The notes: generated by a model not told the origin, from the sequence alone. 64,000 nucleotides of DNA from a bacterium (GCA_963675755.2 CAXXMD010000003.1:256001-320000); one strand, 5' to 3'. Numbered from the stretch's first letter, positions 7,402 to 59,182 are shown. A program made the numbers and translations.

Positions 7402-7413
7402 AAATAACCTTTT

Positions 7414-19420: not shown

Positions 19421-19449
19421 TTGCGTATTCAAGCAGAGATTGCTATACT
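19421..19449 (+). promoter_or_regulatory. Candidate sigma70 promoter (extended -10) for the GlnE-like gene
   Basis: TTGCGT-17bp-TATACT with TG; supports a start at 19477 rather than 19315. Confidence 0.55.
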
Positions 19450-19476
19450 ACGTATGGGACAATGGAGAATTGCGGT

Positions 19477-36680: not shown

Positions 36681-37436
36681 TTAAATAACTTCCAATGCAC
36701 TCTTTTTCATCCATCCAACTTTACCATCGGCCAGTTCAATTTTCACAAAATCACCGGATTCGTCCGTTATTCTTACTTTTAGACCTTCGTGAAGCGCAAA
36801 AACTTCCGTTGCATCGCGTGCCGGGGAGCTCATTATGTCAATTTTTTCTACAAGAATCACACCATATTTATGATATATATCTTCCTGTACCCGTTGTACA
36901 AAAACCAGAGTACTGAAAATACATATAATTAAAACAGGAATAAAAGCAATTTTAGCAAACCTTTTAACTTGTTCATTACGTAAAACCAAGCGTAACATTA
37001 ATAACACCATTAACAAGACATAAATAATCAATGTAACAGTGCCCAATTGAGATATATTTAGCGCATTTTTAACACTATTCCACAATTTGGTAAAAATAAA
37101 TGGCGGTGGAACTGCCAGTTTATCTACCACCTGCAATTGAGCAATCTCTAAATTATAGGCAACATCGGGATCATGGGGTTGTATTTTGAGGGCTTTTTCA
37201 TAATACAATATACTATGCCCAATATCACCTAGCTTGTAATATGAATTACCCAGATTATAATACAATTCGGGACTTGTGTAACCGGTCTCTATTGCAGACT
37301 GGTATTTTTCCACAGCTTCAATGTATTTTCCCTGCTGGTACATTTCGTTTCCAGCTTGAAAATTGGCAAGCACCTGGCCCTCCTGGGCTTTGGGTGCCAA
37401 CAATAAAACAATGTATGCAATTATCCACATATTCAT
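36681..37436 (-). CDS. batE: BatE (TPR, TM pair, SH3)
   Basis: YYNLGNSYYK TPR; FALHEGLKV...LADGKVGW SH3b; operon order. Confidence 0.88.
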   Translation of the reverse strand: MNMWIIAYIVLLLAPKAQEGQVLANFQAGNEMYQQGKYIEAVEKYQSAIETGYTSPELYYNLGNSYYKLGDIGHSILYYEKALKIQPHDPDVAYNLEIAQLQVVDKLAVPPPFIFTKLWNSVKNALNISQLGTVTLIIYVLLMVLLMLRLVLRNEQVKRFAKIAFIPVLIICIFSTLVFVQRVQEDIYHKYGVILVEKIDIMSSPARDATEVFALHEGLKVRITDESGDFVKIELADGKVGWMKKSALEVI

Positions 37437-39284: not shown

Positions 39285-39298
39285 CAACACCAATCCTG

Positions 39299-40114
<816 letters not shown>

Positions 40115-40119
40115 AAAAC

Positions 40120-41151
40120 CTACATAAAACGTCCACGCCATTCCTGTTTGATTCTTTTACGCTCGGGTAAAATAAACTCTATTACCAGTAACAACAATCC
40201 AATAACAACAAAATACTGGTAACGATCTTCAAACTGAGAAAACTTTAAAGAGCCCAGCTCTTTTTTATCCATAGAATCAATATCTTTATAGATCTTGTCA
40301 AGCTCATCTTCACCACTGGATGCTCTAAAATATTTACCACCGGTTTGCAGGGCAATTTTTTCCAGAGTAATTTCATCCAGCTTGGTGATTACCACCTGAC
40401 CAGAACGATCTTTTTTAAAACCCATTTCACCATTACCATCCTGTGCTATGGGAATTGGCTCGCCTTTGGGAGAACCAATACCTACACAGTAAATGATAAT
40501 ACCTTCTTTTTCAGCGGCTTCGGCAAATTTCATCACTTCGCCCTGATGATCTTCACCATCAGTGATCAACACCATCACTTTGTGTTTGCGCTCTTTTTGA
40601 TCAAAGGTTTCTATAGCTTTCTCTATCACCTTGCCCAGATTAGTACCGGGTGTGGGAATCAGATCCGGATCCATAATGTCCAGAAATATTTTAGCCGCAC
40701 CATAGTCAAGTGTTAACGGACATTGTACAAACGGCACTCCTGAAAATGCAATCAAACCAATTCGGTCACCGCGCAGTCTGTCAATAAATCCTTCTACCTC
40801 ATGCTTGGCTTTTTCAAGACGACTGGGTTGTATATCCCTTGCCATCATGGAGCGGGAAACATCAAGTGCTACAACAATATCAATACCTTCACGCTTTACC
40901 TCTTCAAGCTTTGTGCCAATCTGAGGTCGGGCAAGAGCAATTACCAAAAACATGATTGCAAACAGAATCAAACTGATCTTGCCAAACTGACGTGCCCGGC
41001 TGGTATTCCGGGAAAGTTTTTTCAACAGCTCTAAATTTCCAAATTTTTGCATCGCGCGTTTTTTTGCACGAAACGCAAAAAAGTAAAAAACAATCAAAAG
41101 TGGTATCAACCACATCAAGTGTAAAGCATAAATTTGAGCAAAACGTATCAT
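40120..41151 (-). CDS. batB: BatB vWA-domain protein
   Basis: LARPQ, DVSRSM MIDAS, PSRLEKAK, ITDGEDH. Confidence 0.92.
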   Translation of the reverse strand: MIRFAQIYALHLMWLIPLLIVFYFFAFRAKKRAMQKFGNLELLKKLSRNTSRARQFGKISLILFAIMFLVIALARPQIGTKLEEVKREGIDIVVALDVSRSMMARDIQPSRLEKAKHEVEGFIDRLRGDRIGLIAFSGVPFVQCPLTLDYGAAKIFLDIMDPDLIPTPGTNLGKVIEKAIETFDQKERKHKVMVLITDGEDHQGEVMKFAEAAEKEGIIIYCVGIGSPKGEPIPIAQDGNGEMGFKKDRSGQVVITKLDEITLEKIALQTGGKYFRASSGEDELDKIYKDIDSMDKKELGSLKFSQFEDRYQYFVVIGLLLLVIEFILPERKRIKQEWRGRFM

Positions 41152-41172
41152 CTACTTTTCACACCTTTATCC

Positions 41173-42165
41173 TTAGGGTATCTTGCGGAACACGGTATTG
41201 GCTAAAAAGACTTCTATCATCAACAAAACAATGGCAGCCAATAACCAGGGTAAAAACAATTCTTTATAACGGGTATACTCTTTAACTTCAATTTTCGTTT
41301 TTTCCATTTCACCAATCTCTTTATAGATTTGTTCAAGACTGGATTCATCTGTAGCCCTGAAATACTGTCCACCTGTTATTTCAGAGACCCGCCGTAACAA
41401 ATTTTCATCAATTTCTACAGGCATTTTCACATAACGTTTGCCGAAAATGGGATCATCAATGGGATACATGGCCTCACCCCGCTTACCTGCGCCAATGGTA
41501 TAAATGCGCACGCCAAAAGCTTTGCCCACATTGGCAGCCGTTATAGGATCAAGCTCACCGCGGTTATTTCTTCCATCTGTAAGCAGGATAACCACTTTAC
41601 TTTTGGCTTTGCTCTCTTTGAGCCGGTTAACACAATTTCCAATGGCCATACCAATAGCGGTACCATCATCAATCATACCAATATGAATATCTTCAAGAAA
41701 CCGTAATAAAATCCCATAATCCAGCGTCAGGGGGCACTGGGTAAAGCTGAGTCCTGAAAAAACAACTAGTCCAATGCGATCATTGGTGCGTCCCTTGATA
41801 AATTCAGACGCCACAACTTTGGCTGCTTCAAGACGATTTTTGGGTTTAAAATCTTCGGCTTTCATACTACTCGAAACATCCATCGCCAGGATGATATCAA
41901 TTCCCTCGGTAATAATCTCTTCTTCACTTCTTCCTGATTGCGGTCTGGCAAAACAAAAGATAAGAATAATAACAACAAGGGTACGTAATACAAATAAAAT
42001 ATGACGAAAGCGTTTTTTAGGTGAAGATTTTACACTTTTTACTATTCCCAAATTGGAATAGCGCATGGTTGCGGATACGGTTTTATTTTTCCGCAGATAC
42101 CACCAGATCATGACCGGTACAATAACAAGAAGCGCCAGAAATTCGGGATTTGCAAATCTAAACAT
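41173..42165 (-). CDS. batA: BatA vWA-domain protein
   Basis: MFRFANP, DVSSSM MIDAS, GTAIGMA, LLTDGRNN, TGGQYFRA. Confidence 0.93.
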   Translation of the reverse strand: MFRFANPEFLALLVIVPVMIWWYLRKNKTVSATMRYSNLGIVKSVKSSPKKRFRHILFVLRTLVVIILIFCFARPQSGRSEEEIITEGIDIILAMDVSSSMKAEDFKPKNRLEAAKVVASEFIKGRTNDRIGLVVFSGLSFTQCPLTLDYGILLRFLEDIHIGMIDDGTAIGMAIGNCVNRLKESKAKSKVVILLTDGRNNRGELDPITAANVGKAFGVRIYTIGAGKRGEAMYPIDDPIFGKRYVKMPVEIDENLLRRVSEITGGQYFRATDESSLEQIYKEIGEMEKTKIEVKEYTRYKELFLPWLLAAIVLLMIEVFLANTVFRKIP

Positions 42166-42166
42166 A

Positions 42167-43246
42167 TTATGCTTCCTCCCCGTCTTTACGTTCCGGTTCT
42201 TCAAGTGCCGGTTCAGAAGAATCGATTTCTGTCAATTCCTTTTGTTTTTCTTCATCCGCTTCCAGCTCGGCAGGTTTTTCATCAACCGGCTCAGTCGCTT
42301 CCTCACTGATGGGTTCTTCTATAATCATTTTTGTCTTTTCAACAAAGTCAAACGCCAGATCTGTACTATTTTTTGTTTCTAATTCCTGTGGTACATACTT
42401 GGCAAATTTTACAAGATCGCAACCATTTAAAAATGTGTCCATCATATCACGATATTCGGTATCCAGCTGCTGACGCTCCATCTCGTCCAACAATTGAGAC
42501 GTTGTCATTTCCGGTGCATCAATGTAAAACCGGTTACGAATGTAATGACGAACAATATCAGACAATTCAATGTAATATGCTTTGAATTGCTTTTCCTCTA
42601 AAAGATTGCCTGCAACCAATGCATTCAAAGCTTCAAGTGCCACCTCATGTGCTGGCCTGGGTGGCGCTTGTCTTACAGGCAATATGGATTTACCCTGTTT
42701 ATAACGACGATAAAAATACCACGCCGCAAAAACAGCTGCCAATACCAGCAACACAATGCCGCCAATGATAATATATTGACGGTAGCTCATTGGAGGTACG
42801 CGCATGGGCTTGATATCCCGAATATCACTATCAATTTCAGGATTCAAACTCTGTATTGTAATCATTATGGGTTCGGTTTTGATGAACCGTACTGTAGAAT
42901 CACTCTCGGTAGAATACCCAATTTGCAATTCCGGGATTTCGTATTCACCGGTATCAAAGGTTGACAAGAGATAATCCGTTTGAGATACGGTTTTTCCGTC
43001 TTCCTCTTGAGGATCAAGGACCTTATAGTCCCGCAGTTCAAACATACCCAAGTTGGTTGCCAGTTCCGGCATATACACCTTAACATCGGGATCATGAGTA
43101 AGGATGACCGAGTATTGGATCACATCGCCAATATAAATTGTGCTCTTGTCTACTTTGGATTCTATAGAAATGCTTCCCTGCGCCCAAAGTACGGTTTGGC
43201 ACAATAACAAGATAATGGCGAAAATGCTTTTCTTCATTGTACGCAT
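42167..43246 (-). CDS. Bat-operon membrane protein (Ig-like domain, TM, DUF4381-like C-terminus)
   Basis: IRDIKP-TM-PAHEVAL, EMTTSQ, DLVKFAK; sits just before batA. Confidence 0.75.
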   Translation of the reverse strand: MRTMKKSIFAIILLLCQTVLWAQGSISIESKVDKSTIYIGDVIQYSVILTHDPDVKVYMPELATNLGMFELRDYKVLDPQEEDGKTVSQTDYLLSTFDTGEYEIPELQIGYSTESDSTVRFIKTEPIMITIQSLNPEIDSDIRDIKPMRVPPMSYRQYIIIGGIVLLVLAAVFAAWYFYRRYKQGKSILPVRQAPPRPAHEVALEALNALVAGNLLEEKQFKAYYIELSDIVRHYIRNRFYIDAPEMTTSQLLDEMERQQLDTEYRDMMDTFLNGCDLVKFAKYVPQELETKNSTDLAFDFVEKTKMIIEEPISEEATEPVDEKPAELEADEEKQKELTEIDSSEPALEEPERKDGEEA

Positions 43247-43265
43247 TTTAATTGCTGTATTCCTT

Positions 43266-44204
43266 TTACTGAATCCGGCTTTCATAAAACTTGACACCTT
43301 CAGCCCTGATCATTTTTTCAACCAATTCCGCATAAGCCTGCTGATATTTTTGCTGATACAAGGCCTGCATTACCTGTTCTTTAACTTCATTCAGGGATTT
43401 TTGTTTTACAATATTTCCATCTGCATCTTTGTCTGCAAAATCGTCTTTATGTGCTTCATAATACAATTCAACATCATTGGCCTCAACATCCACTTTTTCA
43501 GCCACACGTTCCTGCAATAACTTGCGGACCATAATTGCTTTTTTAGCCTGAAATGCACTTTCAATAACTTCTGAGTCATTATCAAGGCCTGAACGTTTTG
43601 CTGTATCATACAACAACTCGGTTGCAACAAATTCACGCAAAAACTCTAATTTTTTGTCCTTGTTGGTAAACTGTTCACGAACCATTGGCGGTAACTGTGA
43701 CAGCTCAAAATCAAGATCGCCCTGGGTAACCTCACGGTTGCCCACGCGCGCCAGGACCTCACCGGGACGTTTTTTGCTTACTTTGGAAGGATCCAGTTGA
43801 ACAGCTTCATCAAGCACCTGCTGCGCATCTTCGGATCGCTCCAAACGTTCCAGACAGGCAATGATCTTTTTATTAACTTCCGGCATTAAACTTTCTTCAG
43901 GATACAAATGTTTGATTTCCAGATAATGAGCAAGTGCACTTTCATAATCTTTAATTCTTTCAAAGTAGGTATTGGCAATAATATAATTGACATTTGCCCG
44001 CTCACGTGTTGCTACCTTGTAATCATCCAGATACGTTTCATAAGCTTCAATCGCATCTTTGTACAGGGCTTTGTTGATCAAATCACCCGCGTACTCACGC
44101 ATTTTATCTGCACTGACTGCGGGTTTGTTACCCTGATTACACCCCACCAACATGACTGCTACTACCAAAAGCACCCCTGCTTTTTGAAAAAATTGCATCC
44201 TCAT
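43266..44204 (-). CDS. Lipoprotein with TPR plus a SurA/PrsA-like chaperone region
   Basis: LVGC lipobox, TPR-like helices, VLARVGNREVT, ELYYEAHKDDF. Confidence 0.6.
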   Translation of the reverse strand: MRMQFFQKAGVLLVVAVMLVGCNQGNKPAVSADKMREYAGDLINKALYKDAIEAYETYLDDYKVATRERANVNYIIANTYFERIKDYESALAHYLEIKHLYPEESLMPEVNKKIIACLERLERSEDAQQVLDEAVQLDPSKVSKKRPGEVLARVGNREVTQGDLDFELSQLPPMVREQFTNKDKKLEFLREFVATELLYDTAKRSGLDNDSEVIESAFQAKKAIMVRKLLQERVAEKVDVEANDVELYYEAHKDDFADKDADGNIVKQKSLNEVKEQVMQALYQQKYQQAYAELVEKMIRAEGVKFYESRIQ

Positions 44205-44214
44205 CTCCCGTTCA

Positions 44215-45093
44215 TTATCTAAATCTCTTTGCTCGCATTCTAAAAAACCGGATCAACGGCTCGAAATACGATTCATCTGTACGAATATCTATATGGTCTA
44301 CATTCAAAGACCTGAACAACTTTTCTCTGACTGTTTGATTCTCCTGTGTTTTACCGACAAACTCTTTTCTGACCGCAGGGTCAGAAGTGTCCAGCAAAAA
44401 GGTTTCACCCGTTTCTGCGTCTTCCAGCTCTATAAAACCGATGCTGGGCAAATCTACTTCACGGGGGTCCGTTACGGTTATGGCAACAATATCATGCCGT
44501 TTATTGGCTATCTGTAGTGGCTTGTCATAACCTGTGCTGATAAAGTCAGAAACCAAAAACACAACTGCACGGCGTTTTGTTACACGGCTCAAATATTCCA
44601 ACGCTGCGCCAATATTGGTTTTACGTCCCTGAGGTTTATGATAAAGCAACTCACGGACAACTCGCAACACATGCGATTTACCCTTTTTGGGTGCCACAAA
44701 CTTTTCAACCGTATCAGAAAAAATGATCAAACCCACTTTGTCATTATTCTTGATTGCCGAAAAAGCCAGCAAAGCACAAATCTCCGCGGCGATTTCACCT
44801 TTCATCTGTTCAAAGGTACCAAATTCTCCAGAAGAACTCACATCCACCAACAACATAACGGTCAGTTCGCGCTCTTCTTCAAACACCTTCACAAATGGGT
44901 GACCCTGGCGCGCAGTCACATTCCAGTCAATAGTACGGATATCATCCCCGATCTGGTATTCACGCACTTCGGCAAACTCCATTCCGCGTCCCTTGAACAC
45001 CGAATGATACTCGCCAGAAAACACATCATTAACCATACCACGTGTCTGGATCTCTATCCGTTTTACTTTTTTTAATATTTCCTTAGGTATCAC
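44215..45093 (-). CDS. DUF58 vWA-like protein
   Basis: GRGMEFAEVREYQIGDDIRTIDWNVTAR, DVSSSG, SDF. Confidence 0.95.
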   Translation of the reverse strand: MIPKEILKKVKRIEIQTRGMVNDVFSGEYHSVFKGRGMEFAEVREYQIGDDIRTIDWNVTARQGHPFVKVFEEERELTVMLLVDVSSSGEFGTFEQMKGEIAAEICALLAFSAIKNNDKVGLIIFSDTVEKFVAPKKGKSHVLRVVRELLYHKPQGRKTNIGAALEYLSRVTKRRAVVFLVSDFISTGYDKPLQIANKRHDIVAITVTDPREVDLPSIGFIELEDAETGETFLLDTSDPAVRKEFVGKTQENQTVREKLFRSLNVDHIDIRTDESYFEPLIRFFRMRAKRFR

Positions 45094-45112
45094 GATATCA
45101 TCTTAGTTTTAA

Positions 45113-46102
45113 TTAAGGAACTTCAATTTTGTTTAACACTTTACGAACGACATCTTCTGCTGTAATCTCTTCAGCTTCTGCCTCATAGGTCACAATTACA
45201 CGATGTCTGAGCACGTCTAAACCGATTGAGCGAACATCTTCGGGTGTTACATAACCACGGCGGCGCAAAAACGCATGTGCGCGCGCTGCCATGCTGAGAT
45301 TGATAGACGCACGGGGAGACGCTCCAAAAGAGATCAACTCGTCCAGTTCGTCCAGTCCATATTCCTTGGGTGTACGTGTTGCAAAAACAATATCTATAAT
45401 ATAATTTTCAATCTTGGGATCAATATACACCTCGTGTACAACCTCTTTTGCCCGAAGAATTTCTTCAGGAGTAACAACCGGCTTAACCGTAGGTATATCT
45501 TTACGGGTCATACGTCGCATAATTTCCAACTCTTCATCGCGATTTGGGTACCCGACTGAAAGTTTCAGCATAAAACGGTCAACCTGTGCTTCAGGCAAGG
45601 GGTAAGTTCCTTCCTGTTCAATGGGGTTTTGGGTTGCCAGTACCAGAAAAGGCGAAGGCAGCTTGAATGTTTCGTCACCCAAAGTTACCTGACGTTCCTG
45701 CATAGCTTCCAACAATGCGGATTGTACCTTTGCCGGAGAACGGTTGATTTCATCCGCAAGTACAAGGTTTGAAAAAATAGGACCTTTTTTGGTTTTAAAA
45801 TCACCGGATTTTTGATCGAGCAGCATGGTACCAACAATATCTGCCGGCAAGAGGTCCGGAGTAAACTGGATGCGCTGAAACTGGGTTTTAATTACCGATG
45901 ACAATGTTTTTACAGCCATGGTTTTCGCCAAACCCGGCACACCTTCCAAAAGAATGTGACCATCAGCTAATAGACCAACCAACAGTCTTTCAATCATGTA
46001 CTTTTGCCCGACAATCACATTGCCGACCTCGTTCATGATCTTTTCTACAAATTCACTTTCTTTTTGGATCTTTTCATTAATTGCTTGAATATCGAATTCC
46101 AT
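45113..46102 (-). CDS. moxR: MoxR-family AAA+ ATPase
   Basis: GVPGLAKT, RIQFTPDLLPAD, LADEINRSPAKVQSALL, ATQNPIEQEGTYPLPEAQVDRF. Confidence 0.96.
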   Translation of the reverse strand: MEFDIQAINEKIQKESEFVEKIMNEVGNVIVGQKYMIERLLVGLLADGHILLEGVPGLAKTMAVKTLSSVIKTQFQRIQFTPDLLPADIVGTMLLDQKSGDFKTKKGPIFSNLVLADEINRSPAKVQSALLEAMQERQVTLGDETFKLPSPFLVLATQNPIEQEGTYPLPEAQVDRFMLKLSVGYPNRDEELEIMRRMTRKDIPTVKPVVTPEEILRAKEVVHEVYIDPKIENYIIDIVFATRTPKEYGLDELDELISFGASPRASINLSMAARAHAFLRRRGYVTPEDVRSIGLDVLRHRVIVTYEAEAEEITAEDVVRKVLNKIEVP

Positions 46103-46134
46103 TTATCCTCCCAAAATCATTAACTCTCAGGGAT

Positions 46135-47103
46135 TTATTCATTTTCATTATTTTCATCGTGGATGGTTTCAATTTCACCACGTAAAGATTTATACAGATT
46201 GGTATCTAACAAACCGTACAAACGTTCCAACTCTTGTTTTGACGCCTGGTTCCCGGAAAATTTCAAAACATCCGCAGTAACCAGAATTTGCTCAATATCA
46301 TTGCAAAAACTCTGATCAATGTTAGAATTTTTGAGCTCTTTGATGATATCTTCTGTGGGCTTGCTGCCGACCATAATCTCAAATTTTTCATTCAGGAAGC
46401 GTTTCAAAATTTTCACAGTTAAATTGATACCATTCATCACATCCAGTGCAGGATCATTCAAATTAACAGCTGCTTTCAACTCTTCCAATAGCTTTTTTTC
46501 AACAGGACGGTTACGTTCGGCTTCTTCCTCTTTCAATGCCTGTTTTTCAGCTTTTCGTTTGCTCAAATTTATAACCAGATATACAGCCGCAATCACCAAA
46601 ACAATTCCTAGCGCAAGCCAGATCAACCATGTTTTGTCACCCGGTTCAGCAACAGGATCCGTCACCTTGATCTCTATACGGTTTGTGGTAAGCGTCAAAT
46701 CCGTATCCAGCTTTAAATCCGTATAGCGAATAATTACACTCTCTACATATCCCATTCCCAGGGATTGCGGTTTCAATGTAAAAGTGTATTCATGGGTGGC
46801 AAAACTTTTTCCCTGTTTTGTTGTTACCTTGTTAGCTGAAGAATTGGCAACAATCTCGAAATTATTTAAAATGGGATTATCAAAAGGAAATATCTCGTAT
46901 CTATCAAGATCGCCATACCATTCCAGGGTAAACACAACATCAACGGTTCTATTCATTGGAACATCAGACTGCTCAACTTTTGCCGAAAGTTTGATACCTG
47001 TATCGCCAATAGTATCTGTAGAATCTGTCTGCGCGTTTACAAAAGCAAACGCAGTAATAACAATCATGGCTGTTAAAACGAAAAACTGCCTCAACTTTGC
47101 CAT
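46135..47103 (-). CDS. Second BatD-like / DUF4381-like membrane protein
   Basis: Signal peptide, one Ig-like domain, TM, ADVLKFS; start MAKLRQ after GGAG. Confidence 0.65.
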   Translation of the reverse strand: MAKLRQFFVLTAMIVITAFAFVNAQTDSTDTIGDTGIKLSAKVEQSDVPMNRTVDVVFTLEWYGDLDRYEIFPFDNPILNNFEIVANSSANKVTTKQGKSFATHEYTFTLKPQSLGMGYVESVIIRYTDLKLDTDLTLTTNRIEIKVTDPVAEPGDKTWLIWLALGIVLVIAAVYLVINLSKRKAEKQALKEEEAERNRPVEKKLLEELKAAVNLNDPALDVMNGINLTVKILKRFLNEKFEIMVGSKPTEDIIKELKNSNIDQSFCNDIEQILVTADVLKFSGNQASKQELERLYGLLDTNLYKSLRGEIETIHDENNENE

Positions 47104-47137
47104 TTTAAACTCCAAGTTATCAATTGAAAATTGCCAC

Positions 47138-47224
47138 AAAAAAGCCGATGATGGGCAATTGAAAGCCCCAAAAATCGGCGGTTGATTTGAATTACAGAAT
47201 ATGCGTTAATCCCCCTTAACGCAA
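47138..47224 (-). promoter_or_regulatory. Bat-operon promoter with an overlapping palindrome, followed by a terminator-like leader hairpin
   Basis: TTGCGT-17bp-TATTCT; TGCGTTAA-N6-TTAACGCA; GCCGAT..ATCGGC stem plus U6. Confidence 0.55.
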
Positions 47225-47813: not shown

Positions 47814-50417
47814 TTATACAAAATCAAGGGAATTCTCCTTTAAAACAACTTGTATCGTATCTCCTGCATGGAACTTGCCCTCTATCAAGCGGGTAGCCAG
47901 CGGATTTACGATTGCCTTTTGTACCAGACGTTTTAATGGACGCGCACCAAACGCAGGATCATAGCCATGCTCTGCCAGAAAGGATTCCGCTTCTTCGGTC
48001 AGACTTAGGTTCAAATTCTGTGACTTGAGCATTTTTTGTACCTGCTTGATTTGCATACGAATAATCTGGCGTATATGATCACGACTCAGTGTATGAAAAA
48101 CAATCACATCATCAATACGGTTCAAAAACTCGGGACGGAGTTGTTGTTTCAACAGTCCTTCAATCTTTTGCGATATTTCTTCATGTATGCGATCTTTGTT
48201 TTCTTCGGTAATCTGCGATGACATTTCCATCAAATATTGAGCACCAATATTAGACGTCATAATGATTATGGCGTTCTTGAAACTAACCGTACGGCCCTTG
48301 TTATCCGTCAATCGACCATCATCAAGTACCTGCAATAACACATTAAACACTTCCGGGTGCGCTTTTTCGATTTCGTCAAGAAGCACAACAGAATAGGGTC
48401 GCCTTCTGATCGCCTCGGTCAACTGTCCGCCTTCATCAAAACCCACATATCCCGGTGGGGCACCAATCAATCGCGAAACCGCGTGGCGCTCCATATATTC
48501 AGACATGTCAATTCGCACCATAGCCTGTTCATCATCAAACAGAAACTCGGCTAACGCGCGCGCAAGTTCAGTCTTGCCCACACCTGTAGATCCTAGAAAG
48601 ATAAAAGAACCAATGGGCCGAGCCTGGTCCTGCAAGCCCGCTCGAGACCTGCGGATTGCATCGGCTACAGCCTTGACCGCGTCTTCCTGATTTACCAAAC
48701 GCTGATGAATACGGTCTTCCATCTTTAACAATTTTTCTTTTTCACTTTCAAGCATGCGGCTTATGGGTATACCAGTCCATCTGCCTACAATTTCTGCAAC
48801 ATCCTGCTCATCTACTTCTTCTTTCAGCATCTGCCGATTTTCCTGCAAACGAATCAGCTTGGAGTTTGCCTGAGACAGCCGATCTTCCAACTCACGGGTT
48901 TTGCCATATTTCAATTCCGCGGCCAGGGTCAGATTCCCTTCACGCTCTGCACGTACCGATTCAGCGCGTGTCTGCTCAATTTTTTCTTTAAGCGCACGGA
49001 TGTCAGAAATCACTGCTTTTTCCTGCATCCAGTGTGTCCGCAGGTCACCTCTTTCAATATCCAGTTTCTCTATTTCTTCAGAAACGCTGGCCAGTCGTTT
49101 TTTCGAAGCATCATCTTTTTCTTTTTTAAGCGCTTCCCGCTCTATTTCCAATTGTTTTAATTTACGCTCAATTTTCTCCAGTTCTTCGGGCATACTGTCG
49201 ATTTCAATACGCAATTTCGACGCAGCTTCATCAATCAGATCAATAGCCTTGTCCGGCAAAAAACGATCTGCAATATAACGATCAGACATGGTTGCCGCCG
49301 CTATCAAGGCACCATCCTGAATTCGTACACCATGATGGACTTCGTATTTTTCTTTCAAGCCACGTAAAATAGAGATGGTATCTTCAACAGAGGGTTGATC
49401 AACCAGTACCTGTTGAAAACGGCGTTCAAGTGCTGCATCTTTTTCAATATATTTTCGGTATTCATCCAAAGTTGTGGCACCAATACAGCGCAGCTCTCCA
49501 CGCGCCAAAGCAGGTTTCAACATGTTTGATGCATCCATAGCACCCTCGGCAGCTCCCGCGCCAACCAGTGTATGCAGCTCGTCAATAAAGAGAATAATCT
49601 CTCCATCCGCCTCACCAATCTCTTTTAACACCGCTTTGAGGCGTTCTTCAAATTCTCCACGAAACTTGGCACCGGCAATAAGCGATCCCAAATCCAGCGC
49701 TACAATACGTTTGGTTTTCAAATTTTCGGGCACATCACCGTCAATAATCCGCTTAGCAATGCCTTCTGCAATAGCAGTTTTACCAACGCCCGGTTCACCA
49801 ATCAACACCGGGTTATTTTTGGTGCGGCGGGACAATACCTGCAACACCCTGCGCACTTCATCATCCCGGCCAATTACAGGGTCCAGCTTGTCCCTGCGTG
49901 CAAGATCATTCAAATCTTTGGTATACCGTTTCAAGGCCTGGTATTTTTCTTCAGGATTTTGATCGGTAACACGCTGTGATCCTCTTACCTCTTTTAAAAC
50001 CTTGAGTACCACATCACGTGTAATACCGGACTTGCGCAATATATCTCCTGCTGTAGATTTATCTTCAGCAAGGGCTAAAACAATATGTTCAATGCTAACA
50101 AATTCATCACGCAAGGTATTGGCTTCTTTCAAAGCCGTATCAAACAGAACATTTGCAGCCGAAGACAGGTAAAGTTGTCCTATACCTCCACTCACTTTTG
50201 GAAGTCTGGAAATTTCCTGCTCAACGCGTGATAAAACCATACCCGGCTCAATACCGGCTTTACTGAATATATTACGGGAAATACTTTCTTCCGGTTCTAA
50301 AATACCGGTCAGAATATGCAACGGCTCAATTTGTTGATGCCCATTGTCCGAAGCCTTTTGTTGCGCTTTGCCCAGCGCTTCTTGCGCTTTTATTGTCAAT
50401 TTTTCAAACGATAACAT
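47814..50417 (-). CDS. clpB: Disaggregase ClpB
   Basis: Two AAA modules ([16 protein letters not shown]), long M-domain, [11 protein letters not shown]. Confidence 0.97.
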
Positions 50418-50434
50418 GTACAACACCCCTTTTC

Positions 50435-50469
50435 AAAAAAGGCGGGAAATTTAAAAAAACTCCCCGCCC
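50435..50469 (-). terminator. Intrinsic terminator between dnaK and clpB
   Basis: GGCGGG / CCCGCC stem with U6 on the minus strand. Confidence 0.6.
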
Positions 50470-50498
50470 TTATATCTATTACTTTTGGTCAATTTCCA

Positions 50499-52418
50499 TT
50501 ATTTCTTATCGTCATCAACCACTTCAAAATCTGCTTCTTCAGCATCATCTTCCTGACCACCCTGGGCATCTGCCTGAGCATCTGCTCCCGGTTGCGGGCC
50601 GCCCTGTGCTTCCTGGCCGCCTGCAGCTTCATACATCTTTGATGCTGCATCGCTCCACAATTTGCTAAGGGCTTCAACAGAAGATTTAATCTCGTCAAGA
50701 TTGTCTGTCTTGATCGCTTCTTTAACACGGCCTACAGCCGCTTCAAGACTACTGATCATATCGCTTGCAATCTTGTCTTTATTTTCATTCATATGCTTTT
50801 CAGTCTGATAAACCAGTTGATCAGCCTGATTGCGAGCATCAATCAACTCGCGACGTTTTTTATCATCAGCCGCATGATCTTTGGCATCATCAACCATTTT
50901 GTCGATTTCTTCTTTTGACAATCCGGTTGAAGCTTCAATGCGGATCGATTGTTCTTTATTGGTTGCTTTATCTTTTGCAGACACATTCAGAATACCGTTT
51001 GCATCAATATCAAAAGTTACTTCAACCTGTGGGATACCACGCGGGGCCGGTGGAATTCCATCGAGATGGAAACGACCCAATGTACGGTTATCTACCGCCA
51101 TCTCACGTTCACCCTGCAATACATGAATCTCTACAGAAGTCTGACTATCTGCAGCTGTAGAAAAAACTTCTGACTTGCGTGTAGGAATGGTTGTATTTTT
51201 TTCAATCAACTTTGTTGCCACACCACCCAGGGTTTCAATACCCAAAGAAAGCGGGGTAACATCCAACAGCAATACATCAGAAACATCACCGGCTAAAACA
51301 CCACCCTGAATTGCTGCACCAATTGCAACTACTTCGTCCGGGTTTACACCGCGGTGAGGTTCTTTGCCAAACAGCTCTTTAACCATTTCCTGTACCTTGG
51401 GCATACGGGTAGAACCACCCACAAGTACCACTTCATCAATTTCACTCTTGCTCATGCCAGCATCTTTGACTGCCATTTCACAAGGATTTACCAGGCGCTG
51501 GAACAAATCGTCACACAATTGTTCATATTTAGCACGGGTCAGGTTCATATTTAAATGTTTTGGGCCCGTATCGGTCGCCGTAATAAATGGCAGATTGATT
51601 TCAGTCTGCGCTGTAGAAGAAAGTTCACACTTGGCTTTTTCTGCCGCTTCTTTTAAACGCTGCAAAGCCATAGGATCTTTACTCAGATCCACACCTTCTG
51701 CCTTTAAAAACTCATCAACCAGCCAGTCAATTACACGCTGATCAAAATCATCACCACCCAGGTGAGTATCACCATTGGTGGATTTTACTTCAAATACACC
51801 GTCACCAATTTCTAATATAGAAATATCAAAAGTACCACCACCAAGGTCAAATACGGCAATTTTCTCATTGCTCTTTTTATCCAAACCATAGGCCAATGCT
51901 GCGGCAGTGGGCTCGTTGATAATACGTTTCACTTTCAAGCCGGCAATTTCTCCAGCTTCTTTTGTAGCTTGACGTTGACCGTCATTAAAATATGCAGGTA
52001 CGGTAATAACCGCTTCAGAGATTTTTTCTCCCAAATAATCTTCAGCAGTTTGTTTCATTTTCTGCAATACCATTGCTGAAATTTCCTGCGGAGAATATTC
52101 TTTATCGTCTATTTGAACTTTTGCAACATCGTTTTGGCCCTTAACAACCTTGTAAGGCACTTCACCAATTTCAGTTTTTACCTCGTTAAAACGACGTCCC
52201 ATAAAACGTTTAATCGAATAAATAGTCTTGTCCGGATTGGTAATAGCCTGGCGCTTTGCCACTTGACCTACCAGCCGTTCACCTGTCTTGCTAAACGCAA
52301 CCACTGATGGAGTAGTACGCGCGCCTTCAGAATTTTGTACTACAGTCGGCTCGCCACCTTCCATTACCGCCACACAAGAGTTTGTGGTTCCAAGATCGAT
52401 TCCAATAATTTTACCCAT
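50499..52418 (-). CDS. dnaK: Chaperone DnaK
   Basis: [26 protein letters not shown]; AGGAG RBS before MGKII. Confidence 0.99.
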
Positions 52419-52480
52419 CAAAAAAACTCCTTTAAAATTTATATTCATTCATAAAAATTCATTTTCATTATTATGCTTTT

Positions 52481-52496
52481 TGCAACTTGCATGCCA
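52481..52496 (-). promoter_or_regulatory. sigma54 -24/-12 promoter of dnaK
   Basis: TGGCATGCAAGTTGCA (GG-N10-GC). Confidence 0.8.
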
Positions 52497-52591
52497 TGAA
52501 ACAAAAACAAGCACAACCCATACAAAAACAGGTACTTGCAGCAATTACAAGCACCTGTTAAAATTCCATTCACCATTTTATTGACACACTA

Positions 52592-52611
52592 AATTATGTC
52601 AATTTGGCAGA
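52592..52611. promoter_or_regulatory. Putative enhancer (activator binding site) upstream of dnaK
   Basis: AATTATGTCAATTTGGCAGA; 19/20 identical to the reverse complement of 56108-56127. Confidence 0.7.
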
Positions 52612-52640
52612 TATTGCGTCAACTCGTCAAACCTCAAGTA

Positions 52641-52862
52641 TCACGCAGCTGCCTTGTCAGATTTTGATTTTTTTGACTTTTTATCTTTATAATCTGTAAT
52701 ATAAAATCCGGATCCCTTGAATATCAATCCGGTACCACCACTGATTAACCGCTCTACTTTGCCGCCACAGTGGGGACATGCAGCCAGAGGCTTTTCAGAG
52801 ATACTCTGAAAAGCCTCAAAATTTTTACCACATGATTTACATTTATAATCATAGGTTGGCAT
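52641..52862 (-). CDS. FmdB-family zinc-ribbon protein
   Basis: MPTYDYKCKSC, CPHCGG, FKGSGFYITDY. Confidence 0.93.
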   Translation of the reverse strand: MPTYDYKCKSCGKNFEAFQSISEKPLAACPHCGGKVERLISGGTGLIFKGSGFYITDYKDKKSKKSKSDKAAA

Positions 52863-52877
52863 AGAAATCTTGCTCCC

Positions 52878-54392
52878 TTATTCTTTATCCTTTTCAGGAA
52901 CTCGTAGTGCTTCAAAAAAGCTGGTATCACCGCTCTTCATTCTAAACAAGACAATATCACCGGGTTCAAGGCCTTTGAGCTGCTTGTTAAAATCACCAAC
53001 ATCTTTAACCGTTACGCGATTTACAGCCAGAATCAAAAATCCGGGACGTATACCTTTTTTAGAAGCTTCAGAACCAGATTCAACGTCTACTACCAATACA
53101 CCCTGATCATCTTCTGTCAGGCGATATCTGTTACGCAATTCCGGAGTCAGATTCTGAACTTCAATTCCCAAATGAGTTTCTATCTCTTCATTTGCTTTTT
53201 GGCTGCTGCTGCCACCACTTGCAAGCTTGTCAAGATCGCGTTCACCCAATGTTACGGTGATATCTTTCATTTTATTGTCGCGCCAAACTTTTAATTTCAC
53301 TTTTTCATCCGGCATTTTCGAACCAATAATCATAGTCAAATGATCGCTGCTGGTAATATCTTTATCATCCACTTTGAGAATAATATCACCGTCTTTGAGT
53401 CCGGCTTTTTCAGCAGGACTGCCATCGACAACATCAGACACCAAAGCACCGTTAGTAGACTCGAGACCAAAGCCCATTGCAAGATCTTCATCTACATTGG
53501 CGATTAGAACACCCAGCCAACCACGAACAACTTTGCCTTCGTTGATCAACTGTTCCATTACATTGCGTGCCAGATTGATAGGTATGGCGAAACCAATACC
53601 AATGTTGGCCTGACCCACAATAGCAGTATTGATACCCACCAGCTCACCACGCAGATTCACCAATGGACCACCACTGTTACCGGGGTTAATTGCGGCATCG
53701 GTTTGAATAAAATCTTCATACGTAATACCGGAACCACGCATCAGGCTTTTACGACCTTTGGCGCTTACAATACCGGCGGTTACGGTTTTATTCAAATCAG
53801 ATGAGAACGGGTTTCCAATAGCCATTACCCATTCACCAACTTCCAGACTCTCAGAGTCACCCAATTTGACTGGAACCAAACCCTCTTTATCAATCTTGAC
53901 CACTGCCAGATCGCTCTCAGGATCACGTCCAACAATCTCTGCGTCATATTCTTTACCGTCAACAGTAACAGAAATTTCATCTGCATCTGCAACAACATGA
54001 TTGTTGGTCAAAATATAACCGTCAGCGTTAACAACTACACCAGAGCCAAGACCACGTCTTACCTGATCCTGTTGTTCCGGCATGCGGAAAAAGTAACGGA
54101 AAAACTCGTCATCACCAAATGGATTTTGACGGGCCTTAACAACTACTTCGCTGTTGATTGTAACAACGGAAGGACTTACTTCTTTGGATACAGCAACAAA
54201 AGCCTTGCTGAGATTTTCAAGTCCTGCCAATTCTTGTGAAACCGGTTGGGTTGATCCCAACACAACGGTTTCAGCATTATATGCAGCAATGCTTTTATTT
54301 GAAATATCCAAATTGGATGAAATAACCAAACCGGTCACAATACCTACAAACACAGCTAAAATAACCAAAAGTGACACTTTACCAGATTTCAT
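52878..54392 (-). CDS. degP: DegP/DegQ (HtrA) serine protease with two PDZ domains
   Basis: GSGVVV, TNNHVV, DLAVVK, QTDAAINPGNSGGPL, RGWLGV. Confidence 0.93.
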   Translation of the reverse strand: MKSGKVSLLVILAVFVGIVTGLVISSNLDISNKSIAAYNAETVVLGSTQPVSQELAGLENLSKAFVAVSKEVSPSVVTINSEVVVKARQNPFGDDEFFRYFFRMPEQQDQVRRGLGSGVVVNADGYILTNNHVVADADEISVTVDGKEYDAEIVGRDPESDLAVVKIDKEGLVPVKLGDSESLEVGEWVMAIGNPFSSDLNKTVTAGIVSAKGRKSLMRGSGITYEDFIQTDAAINPGNSGGPLVNLRGELVGINTAIVGQANIGIGFAIPINLARNVMEQLINEGKVVRGWLGVLIANVDEDLAMGFGLESTNGALVSDVVDGSPAEKAGLKDGDIILKVDDKDITSSDHLTMIIGSKMPDEKVKLKVWRDNKMKDITVTLGERDLDKLASGGSSSQKANEEIETHLGIEVQNLTPELRNRYRLTEDDQGVLVVDVESGSEASKKGIRPGFLILAVNRVTVKDVGDFNKQLKGLEPGDIVLFRMKSGDTSFFEALRVPEKDKE

Positions 54393-54487
54393 AATAACTT
54401 CCTTTCGTTTGTTCTCCAGTATCTTTTGTTATTTTTTAAACATCATGTTTATTAACATGTTCCAAAATTAAATTACATAAATACATT

Positions 54488-55414
54488 TCAATAGGGCAAA
54501 CCTTCTTCTTTGGCAAATTGTTCCAACAATTGTTTTCCTTTTTTGCCCAAAGACTTGGGAGCCTCAATAACCAACTCTACAATATGGTCACCACTTTTAC
54601 CATTAGCCTTAACTCCCATACCCGTAAGTTTTAACTTTTTACCACTCTTTGATCCGGCAGGGATTTTGAGTTCAACGGTATTCCCTTCAAAAGTCGTTAC
54701 CCGAACTTTGGAACCCAAAGCAGCCTGTACAATATTTATTACTGCGTTACTATACAAATCCAACCCGGTTCTTTTGAACACAGGATGCTCTGCAACATGC
54801 AGAGTTATAAATAAATTGCCTGCAGGGCCGCCATTTGGAGAGGCTTCGCCCTGGCCGGTGAGACGCATGGTCTTTCCATCTTCTGTTCCGGGCGGAATAT
54901 TGATAGACAATTTTTGACTTTTGCCTCCCCTGTTCAAAGAAACCATATGCTTGCCGCCACGAACCGCCAAATCAAAGGGGATTGTAACTTCGGCTTTAAT
55001 GTCTTGTCCAGGTGTGGTATGCCTGCGGGCTCCGCCACGAGAAGTCGAACTGCCGCCAAACAAATCGCTGAACAAATCACCAAAATCAGATCCAGCACTA
55101 CGTCGACTACTTTTACCTCCTCCAAATATAGAGCTCAAATCGTCGAAATTCATCCCGGAGAATCCGCCATACCCACCTTGTCCACCAAAACCACCAGCGC
55201 CAAACTTTCGCATTTGATCGTATTTCTGGCGCTTTTCCTTATTTCCTATAACAGCATAAGCCTCAGAGATTTCCTTAAACTTTTCATCATTCCGCTTATC
55301 ATTTGGATGTTTATCAGGATGGTGTTTTTTTGCAAGATCTCTGTATGCTTTTTTTATATCACTATCAGAGGCGCTTTCAGACACACCCAGTATTTTATAA
55401 AAATCCTTATTCAT
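54488..55414 (-). CDS. Class B J-domain co-chaperone (DnaJ/CbpA-like, no zinc fingers)
   Basis: J-domain HHPD, G/F-rich linker, C-terminal domains, no CxxCxGxG. Confidence 0.9.
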   Translation of the reverse strand: MNKDFYKILGVSESASDSDIKKAYRDLAKKHHPDKHPNDKRNDEKFKEISEAYAVIGNKEKRQKYDQMRKFGAGGFGGQGGYGGFSGMNFDDLSSIFGGGKSSRRSAGSDFGDLFSDLFGGSSTSRGGARRHTTPGQDIKAEVTIPFDLAVRGGKHMVSLNRGGKSQKLSINIPPGTEDGKTMRLTGQGEASPNGGPAGNLFITLHVAEHPVFKRTGLDLYSNAVINIVQAALGSKVRVTTFEGNTVELKIPAGSKSGKKLKLTGMGVKANGKSGDHIVELVIEAPKSLGKKGKQLLEQFAKEEGLPY

Positions 55415-55961
55415 TTACCTGTTCGCTCTCTTTACCTTCTGCAACCATTACCCGAGCCGGTCTGATTAATCTGCCTTTTAACTGATAACCACGCTGCCAT
55501 ACCTGAAGAATTTCACCCGGTTTTGCTTCATCGGTTTTTTCCAGGCGTACAGCTTCGTGCATCTCGGGATCAAAAAGTACATTTTCAGTTTCTACTGTTT
55601 CCAGACCCAATTTCTCAAGAATTGAAAACATTTTATCATATATCATTTTTACGCCCTGTACCGGCAGATGCTCTTTATCATCCGTGTTGTGCAAAAACAG
55701 ATAATCAAAATCATCCATAACCGGCAGCAGCTCGCTGATAACATTGCGGACAGAATTGTCTGCCCAATCGCTCTGCATTTTTTCCATGCGACGCTTGTAA
55801 TTTATAAATTCTGCCTGCAATCTTTGCAGCTGCTCGAGATAATTGGTATTTTCATCACTCCCCGAGGGTGAGGCTTCCTGTTCTGTCACTTCTTCACTCA
55901 TCGGGGCGTTCATTTCATTTTCTTCATTAACCTTTTTTTCTTCAGTATTATTGCCGCTCAT
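55407..55961 (-). CDS. grpE: Nucleotide exchange factor GrpE
   Basis: RLQAEFINYKRR, FDPEMHEAV, GYQLKGRLIRPARVMV. Confidence 0.96.
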   Translation of the reverse strand: MSGNNTEEKKVNEENEMNAPMSEEVTEQEASPSGSDENTNYLEQLQRLQAEFINYKRRMEKMQSDWADNSVRNVISELLPVMDDFDYLFLHNTDDKEHLPVQGVKMIYDKMFSILEKLGLETVETENVLFDPEMHEAVRLEKTDEAKPGEILQVWQRGYQLKGRLIRPARVMVAEGKESEQVNE

Positions 55962-56005
55962 TTTTCTCCCTTACAAATCGTTATATATTTCATTACAGAA
56001 CTATA

Positions 56006-56021
56006 TGCAAGCCTTGTGCCA
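56006..56021 (-). promoter_or_regulatory. sigma54 -24/-12 promoter of grpE
   Basis: TGGCACAAGGCTTGCA, matching TGGCAC-N5-TTGCA exactly. Confidence 0.85.
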
Positions 56022-56107
56022 CTAAAAAAAATCGATATAACATACTATTTTTAAATAAATTAAACAAACTCACACAATCAATCAACTCAAGCAATCATGT
56101 CATAATG

Positions 56108-56127
56108 TCTGCCAATTTGACATAATT
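56108..56127. promoter_or_regulatory. Putative enhancer upstream of grpE
   Basis: TCTGCCAATTTGACATAATT; inverted copy of 52592-52611. Confidence 0.7.
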
Positions 56128-56131
56128 ACAT

Positions 56132-56162
56132 AAAAAAAGGAGAGATAAAATCCCTCCTTTTT
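56132..56162 (-). terminator. Terminator after the zinc peptidase gene
   Basis: AAAAAGGAG / CTCCTTTTT stem with an A-run on the plus strand (U-tract on minus). Confidence 0.65.
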
Positions 56163-56185: not shown

Positions 56186-56863
56186 TCAATCATCGCCACG
56201 TAAAAGGATCAATCGCAAGAGCTGCAATACTGCCATTGCAGCAGCTGCTACATATGTTAAAGCTGCAGCATCCAGCACTTTCTTAGCTCCCTGCACTTCA
56301 TCCTGACGCAGATAACCACCATTACTCAACTGGGCCATTGCCCTGCTGCTGGCATTAAACTCTACCGGAAGCGTAACCAGATGGAACAGAACCGCACCGG
56401 CAAATACAATAATTCCCAGGTCAATCAACGGTTTCATGCTGAACAGGAAACCGATAAAAAACATAGGAATGCCCAAAGTTGAGCCCAAATTGGCTACAGG
56501 AAAAATCGTCTGCCGCCAGCTCAAAGGCGCATACGATAAACTATCTTGAATGGCATGACCGGTTTCATGCGCTGCTACACCCAACGCAGCAAGTGATGAT
56601 GAATGATATACATCACTTGACAGGCGCAGTTTTTTACTACGAGAGTCATAATGGTCCGTTAACGAACCTGGCGTTTCCTCTACAGTAACATCATAAATAT
56701 TATTTCTCTGTAATAAACTTTGTGCAACCTGCGCACCTGTCATACCTGATGCCGCTCTACGCTTACTCATCTCATTAAAAGCACTCTTTACTTTAAATTG
56801 TGCATAAATTGTCAACGCAAGCGCCGGCAATATCAATATCATTGTAGAATCAAAGAAAAACAT
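56186..56863 (-). CDS. YugP-like membrane neutral zinc metallopeptidase
   Basis: LTDHYD, VAAHETGHAIQ, TLPVEFNASSRA, AAALTYVAA. Confidence 0.92.
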   Translation of the reverse strand: MFFFDSTMILILPALALTIYAQFKVKSAFNEMSKRRAASGMTGAQVAQSLLQRNNIYDVTVEETPGSLTDHYDSRSKKLRLSSDVYHSSSLAALGVAAHETGHAIQDSLSYAPLSWRQTIFPVANLGSTLGIPMFFIGFLFSMKPLIDLGIIVFAGAVLFHLVTLPVEFNASSRAMAQLSNGGYLRQDEVQGAKKVLDAAALTYVAAAAMAVLQLLRLILLRGDD

Positions 56864-58288: not shown

Positions 58289-59182
58289 TTAAACTCTCTC
58301 TATTGTTTGTTCAGGTTCCGGCGCCAGCTTTTTAACCATGATCAGACGATTTTCACCTTCAGGCATGATTTTATAGCTAACTTCATCCATAGAACGTTTA
58401 ATAATGGGTAAACCCATTCCACCACGTTTACGATTATCAACAGCTTCTTCGGCATCAAATATCACCAAATTATCTACATTAAAGCCGTCTCCTTTATCAT
58501 ACACCGTAATACGTAAAATATTCGGATAGGTTTCTACTCCTACCTTGACTGATTTTGTAGGATCAGAATGATAAGCATGTTCAATCACATTAATACATGC
58601 CTCATAAACTGATATTTTAATTTTACTTACATCAGCATCACCAAAACCCATATTTCTCGATATATTAACAACAAAATCACATGCTTTATATAATGAATCT
58701 ACCTTGCTGGGAATTTCAATAAAAACCTGACTTACAGCCTGCCCTTGATGAATTGATTCCATCATTCGGTTATCAATCTCTATCTCTTCATCAAAGTCTA
58801 CCTGTTTTGCAGACAAAATCCGCTCTTCAAAGCGATTAAGAGCTGTATTTTCAAAAACTTCATCGGCTAGATAACTGAACGGCTCAAATATTTCAAAATC
58901 CCGACGCGCGTTATCCGAGATGTTTAACAGATTGACATCTCCGCCCATGCGCCTGGCTTTGGCTGTTATTTCAAAAATAGCAACAATCAGACTGGGTGGC
59001 AATTCATCCAGATTGGCCAGGTCAAATAAAAAGAATTTCTTGTTGTCACGCAGACAGCTGTCAAATGCCGTTAAAATCTCTGGTACCAAAGAAATATCTT
59101 TGGCATTTACCAAAGGTTTTAATTTTATAATTTCCTCAAAAGCACTGACGTTACTAATTTCTACCAGTTCTTTTTCCATCAA
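58289..59182 (-). CDS. STAS domain fused to an RsbW-like HATPase (anti-sigma kinase-like)
   Basis: FDLANL...RRMGGDVNLLN; EACINVIEHAY, DKGDGF, GGMGLPII. Confidence 0.82.
   Translation of the reverse strand: MMEKELVEISNVSAFEEIIKLKPLVNAKDISLVPEILTAFDSCLRDNKKFFLFDLANLDELPPSLIVAIFEITAKARRMGGDVNLLNISDNARRDFEIFEPFSYLADEVFENTALNRFEERILSAKQVDFDEEIEIDNRMMESIHQGQAVSQVFIEIPSKVDSLYKACDFVVNISRNMGFGDADVSKIKISVYEACINVIEHAYHSDPTKSVKVGVETYPNILRITVYDKGDGFNVDNLVIFDAEEAVDNRKRGGMGLPIIKRSMDEVSYKIMPEGENRLIMVKKLAPEPEQTIERV

Follow-up and report, generated by a model that had tools for sequence, protein, structure and literature searches.

How are the core chaperone genes controlled in a bacterium whose grpE and dnaK genes are preceded by elements of the -24/-12 type? 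The question is raised by the stretch GCA_963675755.2 CAXXMD010000003.1:256001-320000 (64,000 nt of bacterial DNA, in the following referred to as the window; positions are counted from its first nucleotide). Heat-shock control by HrcA and its element CIRCE (controlling inverted repeat of chaperone expression) or by sigma-32 targets grpE, dnaJ, dnaK and clpB, all of which have counterparts in the window. Unlike in these systems, the promoters predicted here are of the -24/-12 type, which is activator-dependent, and do not belong to the sigma-70 family. A preliminary description of the window had proposed sigma-54 promoters with a shared enhancer for an uncharacterised activator. As far as sequence comparison can tell, this proposal is supported, the respective elements being conserved in relatives while the intergenic DNA diverged. 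With a probability of roughly 0.78, two sigma-54 promoters together with dyad enhancers for an AAA+ activator drive the genes grpE-dnaJ-htrA-fmdB on the one hand and dnaK, probably along with clpB, on the other.

Predicted sigma-54 promoters of grpE and dnaK

Exact matches to the sigma-54 consensus TGGCAN6TTGCW are found twice in the 64 kb of the window. Both are located on the coding strand and in short intergenic regions, one before grpE and one before dnaK. The promoter of the grpE operon (56006..56021, minus strand) reads TGGCAC-N5-TTGCA (TGGCACAAGGCTTGCA), that of dnaK (52481..52496, minus strand) TGGCAT-N5-TTGCA (TGGCATGCAAGTTGCA). Both conform exactly to the consensus and are identical to the strings named in the preliminary description. 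The distance between GG and GC is exactly 10 nt at both promoters. The 3' ends of the matches are located 45 nt before the ATG of grpE and 63 nt before the ATG of dnaK, respectively. If the C of the -12 GC is set to position -12, transcription is predicted to start at ~55995 (grpE) and ~52470 (dnaK).

A dyad shared by both upstream regions

Further upstream, both genes exhibit the same 20-mer. Its copies at 52592-52611 (plus strand) and 56108-56127 (minus strand) share 19 of 20 bases and are oriented in opposite directions relative to their genes, which reproduces the earlier observation. If up to 3 mismatches are allowed, the window contains 2 matches to the 20-mer, compared to a mean of 0.07 in shuffled sequences; none of 100 shuffles reaches 2. 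The upstream regions of related bacteria refine the pseudo-palindrome contained in the 20-mer to the dyad TGYCA-N3-TGRCA, the spacer of which always consists of A and T.

At grpE the putative enhancer corresponds to the 20-mer itself (56108..56127, minus strand). Its dyad core is TGTCA-AAT-TGGCA (56110-56122), the centre of which is located 96 bp upstream of the GG at -24. A weaker second site, TGACA-TGA-TTGCT (56090..56102, minus strand), is found on the promoter side of the main dyad at a distance of 20 bp. It is part of an inverted repeat (I2) and its assignment is tentative. At dnaK the main dyad (20-mer at 52592..52611, plus strand) reads TGCCA-AAT-TGACA on the gene strand (52597-52609) and is centred 108 bp upstream of the GG. 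It is accompanied by a second dyad, TGACG-AGT-TGACG (52617..52629, minus strand), at a distance of 20 bp from centre to centre, i.e. about two helical turns. The centres of the main dyads, 52603 for dnaK and 56116 for grpE, correspond to about -133 and -121 with respect to the predicted starts and thus lie within the 110-140 bp suggested beforehand. Further partial half-sites had been noticed beside the core; a second full dyad is present at dnaK and a weaker TGACA site at grpE.

Conservation in related bacteria

A search with GrpE led to few close relatives. An alignment of the 15 best matches (A1) was used to scan a collection of species-representative genomes, yielding 80 grpE loci, 75 of which stem from unrelated phyla and served as controls. 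The related loci are L001 (OY843751.1), L002, L003, L005 and L017 with GrpE identities to the window of 98%, 55%, 44%, 39% and 33%, respectively. The DNA of L001 is 91.5% identical to the window over 12 kb. The order of genes is common to L002, L003, L005, L017 and the window. Partial relatives (P0002-P0012) were considered at the protein level only, outside the DNA comparison.

The best named matches of DnaK belong to candidate division KSB1 (87%), Calditrichaeota (83-84%) and Zhuqueibacterota. Hence the lineage, judged by its closest DnaK proteins, is probably a neighbour of the Bacteroidota. The labels given by the submitters are in conflict with each other, L002 being deposited as 'uncultured Cytophagia' and L017 as 'uncultured Deferribacteres', with 'bacterium' being used among the relatives as well; at least part of this labelling is probably incorrect.

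An exact sigma-54 consensus at most 500 bp upstream of grpE and on the same strand is present in 4 of the 80 loci (L001, L002, L003 and L005). As judged by the identity of GrpE, these four stand closest to the window. The other 76 are without exact match, and a one-mismatch match alone is found upstream of grpE in 6 further loci. Moreover, L001, L002 and L003 carry a second exact consensus before dnaK. In L017 the sole exact consensus is located before hsp20, which is followed by dnaK and clpB, so that hsp20, predicted as a target in the preliminary description, indeed appears behind such a promoter in one relative. The one match in L011 is taken as chance.

Exact copies of TGYCA-N3-TGRCA occur twice in the window and twice in each of L001, L002 and L003, while L005 has none. 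All 8 are located upstream of a sigma-54 promoter with their centres 96-135 bp from the GG at -24 (96 and 108 bp in the window as well as in L001, 106 and 135 bp in L002, 96 and 106 bp in L003). In the window, L001 and L003, the asymmetric dyad at dnaK is inverted relative to that at grpE; both dyads of L002 are symmetric. The 75 control loci contain 1 exact dyad in 1.16 Mb and none with an A/T spacer, whereby their GC content is 57% as compared to ~40% here. Both dnaK dyads, 20 bp apart, are found in all four species of alignment A3 with the positions TG.C.A..TG.C being invariant.

The comparison of orthologous upstream regions, which had been suggested as a check, hence finds promoter and dyad at equivalent places in L001, L002 and L003. 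The intergenic DNA of L001 has diverged from that of the window outside dyad, promoter, leader and terminator. From the grpE promoter down to the ATG both sequences are 100% identical, as compared to 91.5% for the whole locus, and they diverge further upstream. Across the four species these same blocks are the only ones that align in the intergenic DNA.

Probable transcription units of the chaperone locus

From 47.8 to 56.9 kb all genes are located on the minus strand. Directly upstream of grpE lies a gene for a Zn_peptidase_2 protein (56186-56863, minus strand) with a terminator hairpin at 56134..56162 (minus strand; inverted repeat I3; -13.6 kcal/mol, z = -3.50). The grpE enhancer begins right after this terminator. 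The dnaK enhancer is situated just past the stop codon of the zinc-ribbon gene described below.

The first unit consists of four genes on the minus strand. It starts with grpE (55407..55961; Pfam GrpE, E = 2.2e-40), followed by a dnaJ-like co-chaperone gene (54488..55414) matching Pfam DnaJ and DnaJ_C only, with the zinc-finger domain unmatched. The third gene (52878..54392; Pfam Trypsin_2 and PDZ_2) codes for a serine protease of the HtrA/DegP type with two PDZ domains. The last one (52641..52862; Pfam Zn_ribbon_8, E = 4.4e-20) codes for an FmdB-type zinc-ribbon protein of 73 aa. The unit is closed by an intrinsic terminator (52527..52559, minus strand; -19.7 kcal/mol, z = -5.45), whose hairpin is kept in 4/4 species including one compensatory base pair. 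This terminator is placed between the dnaK enhancer dyads and the dnaK sigma-54 promoter, a layout again seen in 4/4 species. A DNA loop between enhancer and promoter, as it would be expected at dnaK, would therefore span the terminator.

The DnaJ-like proteins of L002 and L017 resemble that of the window in having a J and a C-terminal domain with the zinc finger unmatched; the protein of L005 has the zinc finger. The FmdB-type zinc-ribbon gene is always the last one before the dnaK (or hsp20-dnaK) unit in the lineage of the window (L001 13099-13317, L002 13159-13353, L003 12732-12929, L005 2045-2257, L017 7643-7939). By tblastn it was detected in 7 of the 80 grpE loci, namely the five relatives as well as L075 and L062. 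The spacer of ~500 bp between this gene and the hsp20 sigma-54 promoter in L017 (7940-8450) holds nested inverted repeats, among them a perfect pair of 23 nt (8018-8040/8272-8294) 231 nt apart, which may represent a small inserted element.

The second unit starts with dnaK (50499..52418, minus strand; Pfam HSP70, E = 6e-273). The longest reading frame begins at 52448, with the HSP70 domain starting from residue 14 of this long form. Translation is more likely to start from the ATG at 52418, which is preceded by AGGAG, and the resulting 639 aa form of DnaK aligns with homologues from end to end. It is followed by clpB (47814..50426, minus strand; Pfam AAA_2, Clp_N and ClpB_D2-small), which codes for a disaggregase and starts at the GTG at 50426 or the ATG at 50417. 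A hairpin with a T-run is located 3' of dnaK (50435..50471, minus strand; -21.2 kcal/mol, z = -4.88). It ends about 10-20 nt upstream of the clpB start and leaves no room for a clpB promoter. Given this strong hairpin directly before the start codon, clpB probably relies on read-through of the terminator from the dnaK promoter.

Search for regulators and other heat-shock control elements

In agreement with the preliminary description, the window contains no CIRCE element (0 matches with up to 3 mismatches to the consensus), and neither HrcA nor an HspR/MerR protein is found among its 62 open reading frames (ORFs) scanned against Pfam; the gene upstream of grpE codes for the Zn_peptidase_2 protein, although hrcA is commonly a neighbour of grpE. 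A HrcA/CIRCE regulon was thus rejected for this locus.

RNA thermometers were considered as well. The predicted leaders of grpE and dnaK fold no better than shuffled sequences (z = +1.40 and +0.41, respectively), and since they are unstructured, a thermometer is unlikely. Between 47000 and 57000 no Rfam family reaches its gathering score; the sub-threshold hits are sraA (27.9 bits vs 56) and Histone3 (22.4 bits vs 34). A half-site CTTGAG(T), resembling the HspR-associated inverted repeat (HAIR), occurs near both enhancers in the window. It is absent at the equivalent places of L001 and was dropped for this reason.

Regulator genes were searched for in the window and in the flanks of L002, L005 and L017, with L003 being left out of the Pfam scan. 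No two-component pair is encoded near the targets in these regions. The single PF00158 match in the window is a side-hit from ClpB.

Comparison with known systems

The closest counterpart known to us is found in the Bacteroidota. In Flavobacterium psychrophilum, a -24/-12 motif (class SM4) was assigned by mapping of transcription start sites before groES-groEL, lon, dnaK, grpE-dnaJ, htpG, skp and clpB, according to excerpts of PMC9723704. The same excerpts note three PF00158 proteins without assigning an activator. In addition, for Bacteroidota and Planctomycetota an enrichment of matches to a sigma-54 matrix is described before the genes of GroEL/ES, IbpA, GrpE, DnaJ and DnaK (PMC12316311, in excerpt). 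The novelty implied by the preliminary description was thus overstated, as sigma-54 promoters of core chaperones had already been mapped (PMC9723704, in excerpt). Likewise Myxococcus HsfA, which it had put forward as precedent, is not the closest one, because the chaperone promoters reported from F. psychrophilum and other Bacteroidota (PMC9723704, PMC12316311, both in excerpt) are closer.

Like the SM4 promoters, those of the window precede dnaK and grpE-dnaJ, with clpB being located behind the dnaK terminator without a promoter of its own. Both regulons also include a gene for quality control of the envelope, skp in F. psychrophilum and htrA here. The genes groESL, lon and htpG lie outside the window and the fetched loci. 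The two cases differ in their lineage at the level of phyla, and in the kind of evidence, which is sequence conservation here and mapped starts there. Moreover, a conserved enhancer dyad is defined here, while the excerpts of PMC9723704 and PMC12316311 describe no upstream activating site. The strings 'UAS', 'upstream activat', 'KSB1' and 'Calditrich' do not occur in PMC12316311. A literature search, which did not extend to subscription journals or to supplements on bioRxiv, yielded no paper in which the activator of sigma-54-dependent chaperone promoters or a site upstream of them is named, and nothing that links KSB1 or Calditrichota with sigma-54.

HsfA, an NtrC-type response regulator with the kinase HsfB, reportedly activates the heat-shock gene lonD. 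A table entry in PMC3892784, seen in excerpt, lists HsfA/HsfB of Myxococcus xanthus as an NtrC-type pair for heat shock, with Ueki and Inouye as the reference. The likeness consists in a sigma-54 activator being assigned to heat shock. Unlike the activator proposed here, HsfA/HsfB is known for lonD and not for the core genes dnaK and grpE, and it belongs to a distant phylum.

Two enhancer types resemble the dyad. LuxO binds TTGCA-W3-TGCAA, present in 1-2 copies at -89 to -120 of the Vibrio qrr promoters (PMC11443567, in excerpt). The layout is similar in that a 13 bp dyad with half-sites of 5 bp and an A/T spacer of 3 bp is placed ~90-120 bp upstream of a sigma-54 start. The half-site TGYCA differs from TTGCA, so the LuxO consensus is not matched and a LuxO-type enhancer was rejected; LuxO moreover targets quorum-sensing small RNAs and works in another phylum. 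The likeness concerns the architecture of the site only and says nothing on orthology of the activators.

NorR, on the other hand, uses tandem GT-N7-AC dyads at the norVW and hmp promoters (PMC2831303 and PMC1274295, in excerpt). The symmetric form TGTCA-N3-TGACA, seen in both sites of L002, contains GT-N7-AC, and tandem dyads upstream of a sigma-54 promoter are found here as well. Unlike in NorR sites, 6 of the 8 exact dyads have a TGCCA or TGGCA half that breaks this core. There are two sites instead of three, the targets are chaperone genes, and neither norR nor a gene for detoxification of nitric oxide is found nearby. With the full core restricted to the 2 sites of L002, a NorR-type enhancer was not retained other than as a resemblance. 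The similar layout of LuxO and NorR sites, as described in these excerpts, nevertheless indicates that the geometry of the dyads fits known enhancers.

Proposed mechanism and alternative explanations

We infer that the genome encodes sigma-54 and an activator, that the dyad is the site of this activator and that the activator responds to heat or unfolded protein, the most likely signals in view of the target genes. Combining the established properties of sigma-54 promoters with the sequence evidence from this locus, the following mechanism can be proposed. The two sigma-54 promoters would drive grpE-dnaJ-htrA-fmdB and dnaK, with clpB probably being reached by terminator read-through. The dyad TGYCA-WWW-TGRCA would form the basis of an enhancer upstream of each promoter, with two dyads in case of dnaK, a strong and a weaker one in case of grpE. 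An AAA+ activator of the enhancer-binding class, with its gene in another part of the genome, would bind the dyads as dimers and assemble into a hexamer upon heat or another proteotoxic signal. It could then reach the closed complex of sigma-54 polymerase by looping of ~100 bp AT-rich DNA, and its ATP hydrolysis would open the promoter.

Several observations weigh against this interpretation. Taken alone, the occurrence of two exact sigma-54 matches in 64 kb is weak evidence (mean of 0.70 in shuffled sequences, at least 2 in 14 of 100 shuffles) and one-mismatch matches show no enrichment (18 vs 14.3 expected). Hence the case rests on the position of the matches and on their conservation. Dyads with one mismatch are not enriched either (10 vs 9.1 expected). 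The L005 locus has the promoter and no dyad within one mismatch. L017 lacks an exact copy and shows a single one-mismatch dyad 114 bp upstream of its promoter, which can be regarded as supportive only, because in 66 of 200 shuffles of that locus one or more such matches appear at some position. At grpE the spacing of the weak second site is variable, with the TGACA half-site kept in L001 and L003 and an offset of 18-23 bp in L002 and L003. Neither RpoN nor a protein with a sigma-54 activator domain is encoded among the 62 ORFs of the window, and no rpoN or PF00158 activator gene is found among the scanned ORFs of L002 (15), L005 (3) and L017 (9). Finally, heat induction is assumed from the gene content.

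This last point leaves room for promoters and enhancers that are real and respond to a signal other than heat, such as envelope, periplasmic or osmotic stress, growth phase, or a cue from host or environment, as part of a broader regulon for protein quality or the envelope. The sequence itself specifies no signal, and the grpE operon includes the gene of a periplasmic protease, htrA. For F. psychrophilum the excerpts of PMC9723704 state induction on blood agar, at high osmotic pressure, in plasma and in freshwater, and not by heat. The targets, in contrast, are the classic cytoplasmic heat-shock set of grpE, dnaJ, dnaK and clpB, joined by hsp20 in L017, and no other element of heat-shock control such as CIRCE or a structured leader was found. 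We regard a signal other than heat as unlikely, a broader envelope or osmotic signal being nevertheless a serious rival in view of htrA and of the conditions described for F. psychrophilum.

Far less probable is that the dyad is an operator bound by some conventional repressor or activator or serves as -35 region of a basal sigma-70 promoter of dnaK, with the -24/-12 elements using some other upstream site. The main dnaK dyad does hold TTGACA, followed 16 nt on by TAAAAT, which adds up to an 11/12 match to a sigma-70-type promoter overlapping the dyad. Moreover dnaK usually needs basal expression, which is not obviously provided by a strictly activator-dependent promoter. A transcript starting there would, however, run into the conserved terminator at 52559-52527, and the -10-like hexamer is degraded in L001. 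A -35 box explains neither the two-fold symmetry of the dyad nor its presence in both orientations and at both genes, and sigma-70-type initiation was therefore rejected as its main function. At about -100 to -150 the dyad is also too far upstream for a classic operator, and apart from the terminators it is the sole conserved block upstream of the promoters.

Could the -24/-12-like strings and the shared 20-mer be a chance resemblance without any regulatory role? The shuffles mentioned above, 14 of 100 of which contain two exact sigma-54 matches per 64 kb, point in this direction. On the other hand, both matches are located in the right intergenic regions and on the correct strand. They are seen again at orthologous positions in relatives down to a GrpE identity of 33-44%, while the flanking DNA has diverged, the pair of 20-mers is not reached in any of the 100 shuffles and the dyad is nearly absent from the 1.16 Mb of controls. 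In view of these comparative data chance is untenable.

Other features of the window

Apart from the chaperone locus, a complete-looking mevalonate cluster is located at 3357-9500 (minus strand). It codes for diphosphomevalonate decarboxylase, two GHMP kinases, 3-hydroxy-3-methylglutaryl-CoA synthase and the corresponding reductase, as well as a protein of the flavin mononucleotide-dependent dehydrogenase type, possibly a type 2 isopentenyl diphosphate isomerase. A protein of 1062 aa is encoded at 19315-22503 (plus strand). Pfam recognises a GlnD_UR_UTase domain at its C-terminus only (residues 902-1037) and leaves the first 900 residues unexplained.

A long cluster of the Bat/MoxR type extends from 36681 to 47139 (minus strand) and comprises a MoxR ATPase (AAA_3), a DUF58 protein, two BatA-VWA proteins and several BatD and TPR proteins. 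The start of this cluster follows clpB in L002, too. On the other side of the chaperone genes, at 58289-59182 (minus strand), a protein of 297 aa is encoded. Its C-terminal half is an RsbW-like HATPase_c_2 domain, and the ~150 N-terminal residues are without Pfam match. L002 keeps this gene in the equivalent position before grpE. A connection with the chaperone promoters was not found.

The GC skew is negative in every 4 kb bin of 1-64000 (-0.065 to -0.232) and most genes are located on the minus strand, which is consistent with this strand being the leading strand throughout the window.

Implications

Heat sensing outside the sigma-32, HrcA and HspR systems is poorly understood. Sigma-54 control of chaperones is already known in the neighbouring Bacteroidota; what is new here is the lineage and the candidate enhancer motif. 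One may go further and consider TGYCA-WWW-TGRCA as the site of one dedicated AAA+ master regulator of heat shock in the KSB1/Calditrichota-like branch, with orthologues in the Bacteroidota, that replaces sigma-32 and HrcA across these phyla. Such a far-reaching view is rather unlikely at present. Even less likely is a feedback of the FmdB zinc-ribbon protein, whose gene is the last one ahead of dnaK in each of the five related lineages, on the activator or on sigma-54.

Being almost absent elsewhere, the 13 bp dyad offers a handle for regulon scans, for the choice of activator candidates by co-occurrence or autoregulatory sites, and for DNA affinity experiments or DNA affinity purification sequencing. 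The locus adds a second, uncultured lineage close to KSB1/Calditrichota with the same wiring as in the Bacteroidota, which suggests an early origin of this arrangement within the group of phyla.

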